Shown here: in pieces, positions 2,722 through 58,462 of the stretch
Numbering within the stretch: the stretch's first letter is position 1
How the letters are laid out: each line of letters opens with the position of its first letter
From: Escherichia coli
GTDB taxonomy: Bacteria > Pseudomonadota > Gammaproteobacteria > Enterobacterales > Enterobacteriaceae
Reading direction: 5' to 3' (one strand)
NCBI RefSeq assembly: GCF_013122565.1
Contig: NZ_CP053258.1
Length of the DNA stretch: 64,000 bases
The notes under the pieces: model-generated
Database searches by the model: none
Told to the model about the DNA's origin: nothing
What the model saw: only the letters and a program-made list of their open reading frames with translations
Translations under genes and position numbers: made by a program

Positions 2722-3106
2722 TCTTCTGAATCACCGGGCGACAAAATATAACTGAGTTACAAATAAGTACCAGTCGAATGAGTATTGTATTAAGAATTTT
2801 TGAGTATCGCTGATACAACCAGAAAGCAATGCTAGCGCAATATTATAGGGCCAGCAATTGAGATTATTAGCAAAAGCATGTTAAGAATTAATTACCGAAT
2901 TTATATATTAATTATAGTAAGGCAATGAGCTATTTTTGATAGTAAAAATAAAACAAGTTGATTTGATATATTAAATGAACAAATTAATCTTGATGGCAGT
3001 CTGATTATTGGTGAGGTTTATAGGTCAGTTTTTTTCGCCAGCTGTTAAAGGAATAGAATAGTCGTATAAAAAAGGGTGTTCTGGAGCGTGTAAAACAACA
3101 TCTTCA

Positions 3107-56643: not shown

Positions 56644-57117
56644 CTAATCTCTCAACAACGCGCCCGGATACCCCAGCTGCCGCCAGGCTTCATACACCAC
56701 AACCGACACCGCATTGGACAGGTTCATGCTGCGGCTGTCCGGCACCATCGGAATGCGAATTTTTTGTTCAGCGGGCAGGGCATCAAGAATGCTCGCTGGA
56801 AGGCCGCGTGTTTCCGGGCCGAACATCAGATAATCGCCATCCTGATAGCTTACGGCGCTGTGAGCAGGTGTACCTTTCGTGGTGAGGGCAAACAGGCGCT
56901 GGGGATTTTCTGCTTCGAGGAACGCGCGATAGTCATGATGACGCGTAACGGCGGTAAACTCGTGATAGTCCAGCCCCGCACGGCGCAGGCGCTTATCGTC
57001 CCAGGCAAATCCCATCGGTTCGATGATATGCAGACGAAAGCCGGTATTAGCGCAAAGACGGATGATGTTGCCAGTATTTGGCGGAATTTCTGGTTCGTAA
57101 AGTACGATGTTTAGCAT
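56644..57117 (-). CDS. trmL: tRNA (cytidine/uridine-2'-O)-methyltransferase TrmL
   Basis: 157-aa SpoU-family ORF. Confidence 0.9.
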
Positions 57118-57169
57118 ACTGCCCCCTTAGTGCGGGGGCAGGATAGCAGAAAATTGGTGAGCAGTGCGG

Positions 57170-57262
57170 CCTTTTCCCCTCACCCCGGCCCTCCCCCTGT
57201 CTCTTGATCAGGAGATCTGATCAAGAGACAGCTCCCTGAGGGAGAGGGTTAGGGGGAGGGGG
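57170..57262. repeat. Compound GC-rich palindromic element with an IS50 inside-end-like core
   Basis: cccctcaccccggccctcccc-CTGTCTCTTGATCAG-gagatc-TGATCAAGAGACAG-ctccctgagggagagggttagggggaggggg in the 154-bp lldD-trmL gap; the minus strand of the core reads CTGTCTCTTGATCAGATCT. Confidence 0.6.
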
Positions 57263-57271
57263 CGCAAACGA

Positions 57272-58462
57272 CTATGCCGCATTCCCTTTCGCCATCGGAG
57301 CCAGTGCCGCAGGCAACTCTTTACCCAGCCCTTGCACCAGCGAATCTTGCGTAATTTCGCTAATCGATTTCGCGCCAGTCAGCGTCATCGCCACTTTCAT
57401 CTCTTTTTCGATCAGATTTAGCAGGTTAGCTACACCCGCCTGGCCCGCTGTTGCCAGCGCATACAGGAAAGCACGACCCAGCAGTACGGTGTCGGCACCG
57501 AGCGCAATCATACGCACGACATCAAGCCCGTTACGAATTCCGCTATCCGCCAGAATGGCGATATCACCTTTCACCGCATCTGCAATAGCGGGCAACGCAC
57601 GAGCGGAAGAGAGTACACCGTCCAGCTGGCGGCCACCGTGGTTAGAAACCACAATCCCATCAGCACCAAAACGTACTGCATCGCGCGCATCTTCCGGATC
57701 GAGGATCCCTTTGATCACCATCGGGCCATCCCAGAAATCGCGGATCCACTCAAGGTCTTTCCATGAGATGGACGGATCGAAGTTATTCCCCAGCCAGCCG
57801 ATGTAATCTTCCAGTCCGGTCGGTTTGCCGAGATATGCTGAGATATTACCTAAATCATGCGGACGACCGTTTAGGCCCACATCCCACGCCCATTGCGGAT
57901 GTGTCACCGCCTGCAAGTAGCGCCGCATTGCCGCATTTGGGCCGCTCATACCCGAGTGCGCATCACGGTAGCGTGCGCCCGGTGTCGGCATATCCACGGT
58001 GAAAACCAGCGTCGAACAACCCGCTGCTTTTGCTCGCTCCAGCGCGTTACGCATAAAGCCGCGATCGCGCAGCACATAAAGCTGGAACCACATTGGGCGC
58101 TTGATGGCTGGCGCGACTTCTTCAATCGGGCAAACGGAAACCGTCGAGAGAGTAAACGGAATGCCATGCGCATCCGCCGCTTTGGCTGCCTGAACTTCGC
58201 CACGACGCGCATACATGCCACACAAACCCACCGGTGCCAGTGCTACCGGCATCGACAATTTCTCATTAAACAGCGTCGTTTCCAGGCTTAAGTCGGACAT
58301 GTTTTTCAGAATACGCTGGCGCAGCGCCACTTCTGACAAATCTTCCACGTTGCGGCGCAGCGTGTATTCAGAATATGCCCCCCCATCCATATAGTGGAAC
58401 AGGAACGGCGGCAGAATGCGTTGCGCTGCGGCGCGATAATCGCTGGCTGCGGAAATAATCAT
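57272..58462 (-). CDS. lldD: L-lactate dehydrogenase (FMN-dependent)
   Basis: 396-aa ORF, alpha-hydroxyacid oxidase family. Confidence 0.95.

Follow-up and report, generated by a model that had tools for sequence, protein, structure and literature searches.

A 35-bp palindrome between lldD and trmL of Escherichia coli is best read as the fossil right end of the insertion sequence ISEc13

The gap between lldD and trmL contains a 35-bp palindrome that is, on the basis of sequence comparison, best read as the fossil right end of ISEc13, an insertion sequence of the IS4 family (IS50 group), and not as a working mobile element. We assign a probability of about 80% to the reading that ISEc13 inserted in a BoxC-like hairpin below lldD and was then nearly completely lost, so that its last 33 bp remain. 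The lldD-trmL feature is an unannotated instance of a well-known kind of object, i.e. an IS fossil. The features of the region are listed in Table 1, with positions in the window, i.e. the whole stretch of 64 kb that was analysed.

Table 1 Features of the lldD-trmL gap and of the two adjacent genes
Feature	Position	Strand	Remarks
trmL	56644-57117	-	downstream of the element, on the same strand as lldD
BoxC-like repeat, left arm	57176-57196		minus strand resembles the zntA-tusA repeat GGGGAGAGGGTTAGGGTGAGGGGAAAAGGC
35-bp palindrome	57197-57231		CTGTCTCTTGATCAG-GAGAT-CTGATCAAGAGACAG; two 15-nt arms, 5-nt centre
Probable ISEc13 right (inside-end-type) terminus, 33-bp remnant	57199-57231	+	tip ...GAGACAG towards lldD
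GATC (Dam) sites, n = 3	57206-57209, 57214-57217, 57219-57222		inside the palindrome
IS50/Tn5 inside-end match, 19 nt	57213-57231	-	reverse complement is CTGTCTCTTGATCAGATCT, 19/19
Probable former stop codon (TGA) of the ISEc13 transposase	57218-57220	+	aligned to the translation of an IS copy
Target DNA abutting the IS tip	57232-57239	+	CTCCCTGA; presumed surviving copy of an 8-bp duplication
BoxC-like repeat, right arm	57240-57262		GGGAGAGGGTTAGGGGGAGGGGG
lldD	57272-58462	-	upstream gene; stop codon 10 nt from the right arm

A preliminary description of this DNA, made from the sequence alone, had noted a palindrome in the gap, GC-rich flanking arms, several Dam sites, and the absence of an adjacent transposase gene, and it was correct in all four respects. 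The two 15-nt arms are 100% complementary around the 5-nt centre, and the GC-rich outer arms (57176-57198 and 57239-57261, 23 nt each) are 78% complementary, with 100% over the inner 10 nt. Three GATC sites lie within the palindrome, and the neighbours are trmL and lldD. Dam methylation at transposon ends is known to block transposase binding (PMC3347997). The 15-mer arm occurs twice in the window when up to two mismatches are allowed, compared with 0.06 occurrences expected from shuffled sequences.

The parent element was recognised when the gap was compared by BLAST with 5,426 complete E. coli genomes. Matches were found on plasmids, where the 33 bp end a transposase pseudogene of the IS4/Tn5 family, the intact copies of which are annotated by NCBI as "IS4-like element ISEc13 family transposase". 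The remnant is identical to the last 33 bp of ISEc13 (33/33, versus 28/33 in the reverse orientation), and the match, with an E value of 5e-11 within the window, takes in the final transposase codons and the TGA stop. In all ISEc13 copies examined, the transposase reading frame ends in the identical 33 bp. Positions 57197-57217 correspond to the last codons, (K)SLDQEI, and an IS copy (L005) translates to ...VMKSLDQEI followed by the stop. The CT at 57197-57198 is missing from the IS-internal copy (AAGTCTC), and the full 15-nt left arm is therefore not simply IS-internal sequence.

ISEc13 has a length of 1,550 bp, with the left end CTGTCTCTTATACACAAAT and the right end ...GAAGTCTCTTGATCAGGAGATCTGATCAAGAGACAG, which holds the last codons ...KSLDQEI and the stop codon. 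Its transposase (457 aa) aligns over the full length to Tn5 transposase structures (E = 4e-82) and matches the NCBIfam IS4 family model NF033590. The right end carries a built-in hairpin with 13-bp arms and the same GAGAT loop, which is most of the palindrome noted earlier. About 30 copies of ISEc13 are present in EPEC E2348/69. The left end has 17/19 identities with the Tn5 outside end and also 17/19 with the engineered mosaic end CTGTCTCTTATACACATCT, the first 16 nt of the latter comparison being identical (L010:684-702; also L007, L008, L012, and L061-L069); the outside-end and mosaic-end sequences were taken from PMC3347997. A literature search for ISEc13 yielded only resistome or mobilome listings, and a search for the core sequence gave no match.

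Nothing else of the element was detected. Neither the left end CTGTCTCTTATACAC... (with up to three mismatches) nor, by BLAST, other ISEc13 segments were found in the 64-kb window. Lacking a transposase, a left end, and a usable end pair, the remnant is immobile. It shares with ISEc13 the identical terminal 33 bp, including the final codons, the TGA, and the 13-bp hairpin, and it shares with intact copies a target at the apex of a GC-rich hairpin (see below), but it keeps only 33 of 1,550 bp and lacks the left end, the transposase, and a clean target duplication. A "transposition scar" had been among the options of the preliminary description, and this is the option that stands, in the form of an ISEc13 terminal remnant.

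The sequences on both sides of the palindrome resemble repeats at zntA-tusA and ybaY-atl, and the arm motif is present in one copy in the window. The left arm in the window, read on the minus strand, is also matched by the outer arm of the zntA-tusA repeat (GGGTGAGGGGAAAAGGC). Because the arms match those of the zntA-tusA repeat, they belong to a dispersed repeat, which we provisionally regard as BoxC-like. In E. coli, BoxC repeats are 56 bp long and present in about 32 copies (PMC2267715). Like the arms in the window, they are GC-rich imperfect palindromes at intergenic loci, but the core palindrome of the window element is no part of the repeat. The earlier proposal of a BoxC-like element thus applies, provisionally, to the flanking arms only and fails for the core, which is not a multicopy BoxC/RSA-type sequence and occurs at one E. 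coli locus.

The position of the remnant inside such a repeat is explained by the habit of ISEc13 to insert at hairpin apexes. Intact copies for which both flanks are available have direct duplications of 8 bp, sometimes 9 bp, which are fully identical (8/8 or 9/9) and abut GAGACAG. At five of six independent sites the duplication is centred at most 3 nt from the apex of a GC-rich hairpin, i.e. at ybaY-atl (stem of 12 bp), agp-yccJ (11 bp), symE (10 bp), and sites beside iclR (8 bp) and tRNA-Pro (7 bp). The sixth site, dgoD, has no hairpin. For stems of 8 or more pairs, only about 1% of the window positions are equally close to an apex; this strict criterion applies to four of the six sites, which corresponds to about 1e-7 in a rough binomial estimate; a binomial value of 4e-10 is obtained for at least five of six sites, for which the 7-pair stem has to be counted. 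A seventh copy, in E2348/69, is located in the BoxC-like zntA-tusA repeat, with a 9-bp duplication directly 5' of GGGGAGAGGGTTAGGGTGAGGGG. The remnant in the window, GAGACAG/CTCCCTGA/GGGAGAGGGTTAGGG, has the same relative position, directly 5' of GGGAGAGGGTTAGGG.

The targets of ISEc13 differ in sequence and comprise BoxC-like repeats, terminator-like hairpins, and C5/G5 hairpins (sites in L010, L064-L068, L007, and L069), and the preference therefore looks structural or symmetry-based, rather than directed at one repeat family. No mention of hairpin-apex targeting by ISEc13 was found in the literature search. IS1397/ISKpn1 and IS621 insert in REP/BIME palindromic repeats. ISEc13 resembles these elements, and also ISRm22, in that its copies and remnants are centred in dispersed GC-rich palindromes, but differs in that its targets vary in sequence. 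ISRm22, a member of the IS4 family, targets REPs of Sinorhizobium, and Tn5 targets show a tendency towards palindromes with terminal G/C (PMC1525189).

The distribution of the remnant allele was determined in the 5,426 complete E. coli genomes, counting matches that cover at least 80% of an 86-nt query. It behaves as an ordinary allele, common and harmless, and is present in 791 genomes (about 15%) with identities of 97.7-100%, which is consistent with one ancestral event. Carriers include E. coli B/BL21 derivatives, ATCC 8739, HS, and O145 strains, and the allele is also the main match in gut metagenomes. The 35-bp core has a single locus in E. coli. Alleles with and without the remnant have their flanks in common.

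The K-12-type allele, found in about 2,700 genomes, consists of two inverted BoxC-like hairpin units with a 57-nt spacer and contains no IS sequence (MG1655, L001:301-534); the RefSeq record of MG1655 has no repeat feature annotated in the gap. It differs from the remnant allele by about 80 bp and is not its simple-insertion counterpart, so that the ancestral state is uncertain. The alleles of C10 and PEC240 are of the K-12 type with a 12-nt deletion. Strain GIMC1405:EC_Lstone01 has lost the whole BoxC pair, and CCCCTCACCCC is joined to CAACTATGCCGC (L072:251-360), showing that the whole structure is dispensable. In Ecol_276 the gap consists of 47 bp of unrelated sequence. A full ISEc13 at the lldD-trmL junction was found in none of the 5,426 genomes with a chimeric query of 84 nt of the IS end and 68 nt of the flank, for which at least 80% coverage was required.

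Several further observations concern this gap. In O157:H7 TR01 (L002:390-455), the left 26 bp of the palindrome are fused to K-12-type sequence, together with further private SNPs. This chimera was considered as an intermediate allele and dropped, as it is present in one of the 5,426 genomes and the other O157 strains are of the K-12 type; it reflects either rare recombination or an error of assembly. The K-12 spacer (CTCACTCTGAAACGACACC) was also considered as an older IS end, and the candidate was rejected because its 11/19 identities with the Tn5 outside end are at chance level, given the number of positions tried. A separate hairpin, ATACTGCCCCC-TTAGTGC-GGGGGCAGGAT at 57116-57144, overlaps the start codon of trmL (ATG 57117-57115, minus strand). 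All seven aligned alleles, including the otherwise unrelated Ecol_276 gap, have this hairpin unchanged, and it may control the translation or transcription of trmL.

According to the preferred reading, ISEc13 would have inserted into the central hairpin of the BoxC-like repeat just downstream of lldD, with the right end directed towards lldD. Of the 1,550 bp, nearly all would have been lost later, while the last 33 bp, including the 13-bp inverted copy of the element's own tip, would have been kept, and two further bases would have completed the perfect 15+15 palindrome. From the 8-9-bp duplications that abut GAGACAG in intact copies, we infer that CTCCCTGA was duplicated upon insertion. The junction on the lldD side would then be GAGACAG/CTCCCTGAGGG, and the site prior to insertion would be a single-BoxC "empty" allele, GGCCCTCTCCCTGAGGGAGAGGG.

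Four observations weigh against this sequence of events. Firstly, the flanking target-site duplication for which the preliminary description had proposed a search is not present in a clean form: the left flank, which ends ...GGCCCTCCCC, offers CCCTCCCC, which has 3/8 identities with CTCCCTGA on the right, and shifted boundaries as well as 8- and 9-bp registers were included in the search. A fit with a 4-nt slip and a substitution is possible, but was discarded as post hoc. Secondly, the absence of a full ISEc13 from the junction in 5,426 genomes means that the intermediate was not observed. Thirdly, the CT at 57197-57198 needs an extra step. Fourthly, as noted above, the K-12-type allele is not a simple-insertion counterpart of the remnant allele.

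We infer three possible routes for the loss of the body. The first would be a deletion between the two copies of a 7-bp direct repeat of ISEc13, GTCTCTT, one at the left end and the other internal, close to the right end. This deletion would generate the exact 35-mer, including the CT, but it predicts that the duplications are retained; as they are absent, the left junction is not explained by this route alone. Foster and colleagues reportedly described in 1981 a "nearly precise excision" of Tn10, in which palindromic leftovers arise when the DNA between short direct repeats within the inverted ends is deleted. The Tn10 remnants resemble that of ISEc13 in being short palindromic leftovers of transposon-end sequence only, but they keep the 9-bp target duplication, whereas the ISEc13 remnant shows none. 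The second route would be a hairpin-primed template switch, in which the nascent strand would use the right-end hairpin to turn back on itself; after copying the tip AG and part of the flank, it would return to the template within the other arm of the palindromic target. The CT, inverted flanks, and the occurrence of solo copies (see below) in palindromic targets only would thereby be accounted for; however, in the window the left and right flanks are not inverse copies of each other, so that this route also does not fit cleanly. As a third route, a K-12-type double repeat could have undergone a larger deletion.

The compound hairpin, irrespective of how it arose, could now be the lldPRD terminator or a stabiliser of the mRNA 3'-end and be kept for that reason. 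We consider this unlikely. The lldD-sense RNA of the remnant allele has a very stable predicted fold (-89.6 kcal/mol, z = -6.2), the hairpin starts 10 nt past the stop codon of lldD, and the allele is common and well conserved, all of which would fit such a role. However, there is no U-tract behind the hairpin, the sequence past the stem being GGGGAAAAGGCC, whereas the K-12-type allele, the RNA of which has an equally stable fold (-94.3 kcal/mol), contains in its lldD-sense strand a U7 run (CACUCUUUUUUUCU) that is lost in the remnant allele. In other lineages the 47-bp gap or the deletion of the whole repeat shows that the structure is not required. A search of Rfam gave nothing at the gathering threshold, with generic hairpin matches of 20-28 bits versus thresholds of 64-96. 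Taken together, the missing U-tract, the dispensable repeat, and the lack of an Rfam match mean that nothing indicates a selected role, and the sequence does not support the terminator function that had been suggested for the palindrome. In the predicted fold of the lldD-sense RNA, the remnant simply lengthens a 3'-UTR hairpin that is already very stable. Because trmL follows on the same strand, read-through may be tolerated.

The same palindrome was found in other species when metagenomes and one genome per species were scanned for the exact pattern, namely in Serratia silvae, other Serratia, Rahnella, Budvicia, Escherichia whittamii, and another Escherichia species, and also in Salmonella diarizonae and a soil proteobacterial MAG. 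About 11 matches in the species genomes are right ends of IS copies, while about 15, and a few from metagenomes, are 35-bp solo copies with CT...AG ends and the loop in either orientation. The solos occur where relatives of the IS occur, and most are centred in CCCTCTCC...GGAGAGGG hairpins. None of the approximately 15 solo copies has a direct duplication (the best direct identities are 4/8 or 6/9). Their flanks are inverted repeats, which are perfect over 13-16 nt in two cases. One motif contains a decayed IS in an E. coli plasmid and only the solo in S. diarizonae and a metagenome contig, which is consistent with collapse in place. It can tentatively be proposed that members of the ISEc13 family home to the apexes of GC-rich hairpins, such as BoxC-like repeats and terminators, and, owing to the hairpin built into their right end, collapse there by hairpin-primed template switch, leaving a 35-bp solo with inverted instead of direct flanking repeats; we regard this as possible, though doubtful.

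Some sequence patterns recur around these copies. Several solos share the arrangement GCGA/element/TCGC (the solos are in L013, L014, L016-L020, L030, L036-L039, L048, and L057), and GCGA(A) also precedes GTCTC inside IS copies of Budvicia, Rahnella, and Serratia. The IS in the leading region of an E. coli plasmid (L006, bracket at 2055-2079 and 3034-3056) and the solos of S. diarizonae, a metagenome contig, and Budvicia (L035, L046, and L025) lie within a common bracket of about 25 nt. All four have GTCTATGGAAAACCCCCAGCCAGGCT at the left; the right bracket, GGCTATGCCGGAGGATATTTATT, is common to L006, L035, and L046, and Budvicia L025 has the left flank only. The four bracketed loci are not alike in their wider contexts, and the terminator-like hairpin that precedes the left flank is another one at each of them; the bracket could itself belong to a mobile or recombining unit. 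In Budvicia aquatica (L021-L028), seven of eight right junctions of IS or solo copies abut GTTGAAAAACGGGGT or GTTTTTCAACGGGGT, which belong to a further hairpin repeat (ACCCCGTT-loop-AACGGGGT), the loop of which occurs in both orientations.

The solo copies also bear on the possibility that the element is a MITE, i.e. a 35-bp unit with two inside-end-type terminal repeats that is moved in trans into hairpins by the transposase of the ISEc13 family or of Tn5. Its perfect terminal inverted repeats (15+15 in 35 bp), the lack of coding capacity, and the hairpin context common to solos and full IS copies are all compatible with this view, as is the presence of solos at many loci in several genera, including five in one genome of Serratia silvae with the loop in both orientations. 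In contrast, none of the approximately 15 solos has a direct duplication of 8-9 bp, whereas full ISEc13 copies have one, and there is a single locus per E. coli genome. Furthermore, two full 19-bp ends cannot fit into 35 bp, and the left end has 15/19 identities and overlaps the right end. Synapsis of Tn5 needs both ends in one looped complex, which very short DNA is unable to form, and 35 bp would be too short for a paired-end complex. The MITE-like element of the preliminary description is therefore weak as an explanation and appears quite improbable.

A scar of IS50/Tn5 itself, of natural origin or left by laboratory mutagenesis, is suggested by the 19/19 inside-end match. This match, put forward in the preliminary description, holds against real Tn5 DNA: a 121-nt Tn5 query matched 243 plasmid records at approximately 100% identity, and in plasmid p14EC017b (L041) CTGTCTCTTGATCAGATCT is located 18 nt from the start codon of aph(3')-IIa, adjoining a frame that encodes the C-terminus of the Tn5 transposase, ...DGFLAAKDLMAQGIKI, up to the stop codon. 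ISEc13 and IS50 have homologous transposases and nearly identical ends, and for this reason the remnant matches the Tn5 inside end, including its two GATC sites. However, contiguous identity from the tip ends at exactly 19 bp for IS50, whereas it extends over 33 bp, including the stop codon, for ISEc13, and IS50, unlike ISEc13, has no inverted internal copy of its tip and hence forms no such palindrome. Moreover, the allele is present in 791 genomes, of natural as well as laboratory strains, from many hosts and in gut metagenomes, and neither aph(3')-II, ble, nor IS50 sequence beyond the 19-mer was found in the 64-kb window. The proposed relation to IS50/Tn5 as the source thus gives way to ISEc13 as the parent, and the comparison of 19 bp with 33 bp effectively refutes an origin from IS50/Tn5. 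Hardly credible at all is the view that the palindrome is native to a BoxC-type repeat and resembles a transposon end by chance, since, although it is centred in a BoxC-like palindrome and similar composites exist in Serratia, the zntA-tusA and ybaY-atl repeats and the K-12 allele lack it, arm motif and core each have a single copy in the window, and a 33/33 match including a transposase stop codon (E = 5e-11) is not plausibly fortuitous.

No annotation exists for the lldD-trmL stretch, in which K-12 and B-type laboratory strains differ. The U-run of K-12 is missing from the B-type allele, and this could alter the 3'-end formation of lldD and the read-through into trmL. The chromosomes of BL21 derivatives, ATCC 8739, and HS hold a perfect Tn5 inside end. 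In addition, the similarity of the ISEc13 left end to the mosaic end used in tagmentation is relevant to adapter trimming, as Nextera-type trimming would clip true reads at ISEc13 left ends, e.g. at the approximately 30 copies of EPEC E2348/69.

The main lead is the hairpin-apex habit of ISEc13 together with the duplication-free palindromic scars of its relatives in several genera. The apparent apex preference offers a case in which structure-guided targeting by a Tn5-like transposase can be tested. If homing to apexes and subsequent collapse are true, intergenic palindromes would have been lengthened and perfected recurrently across Enterobacterales, and intact Tn5-type inside ends would be scattered through their chromosomes.
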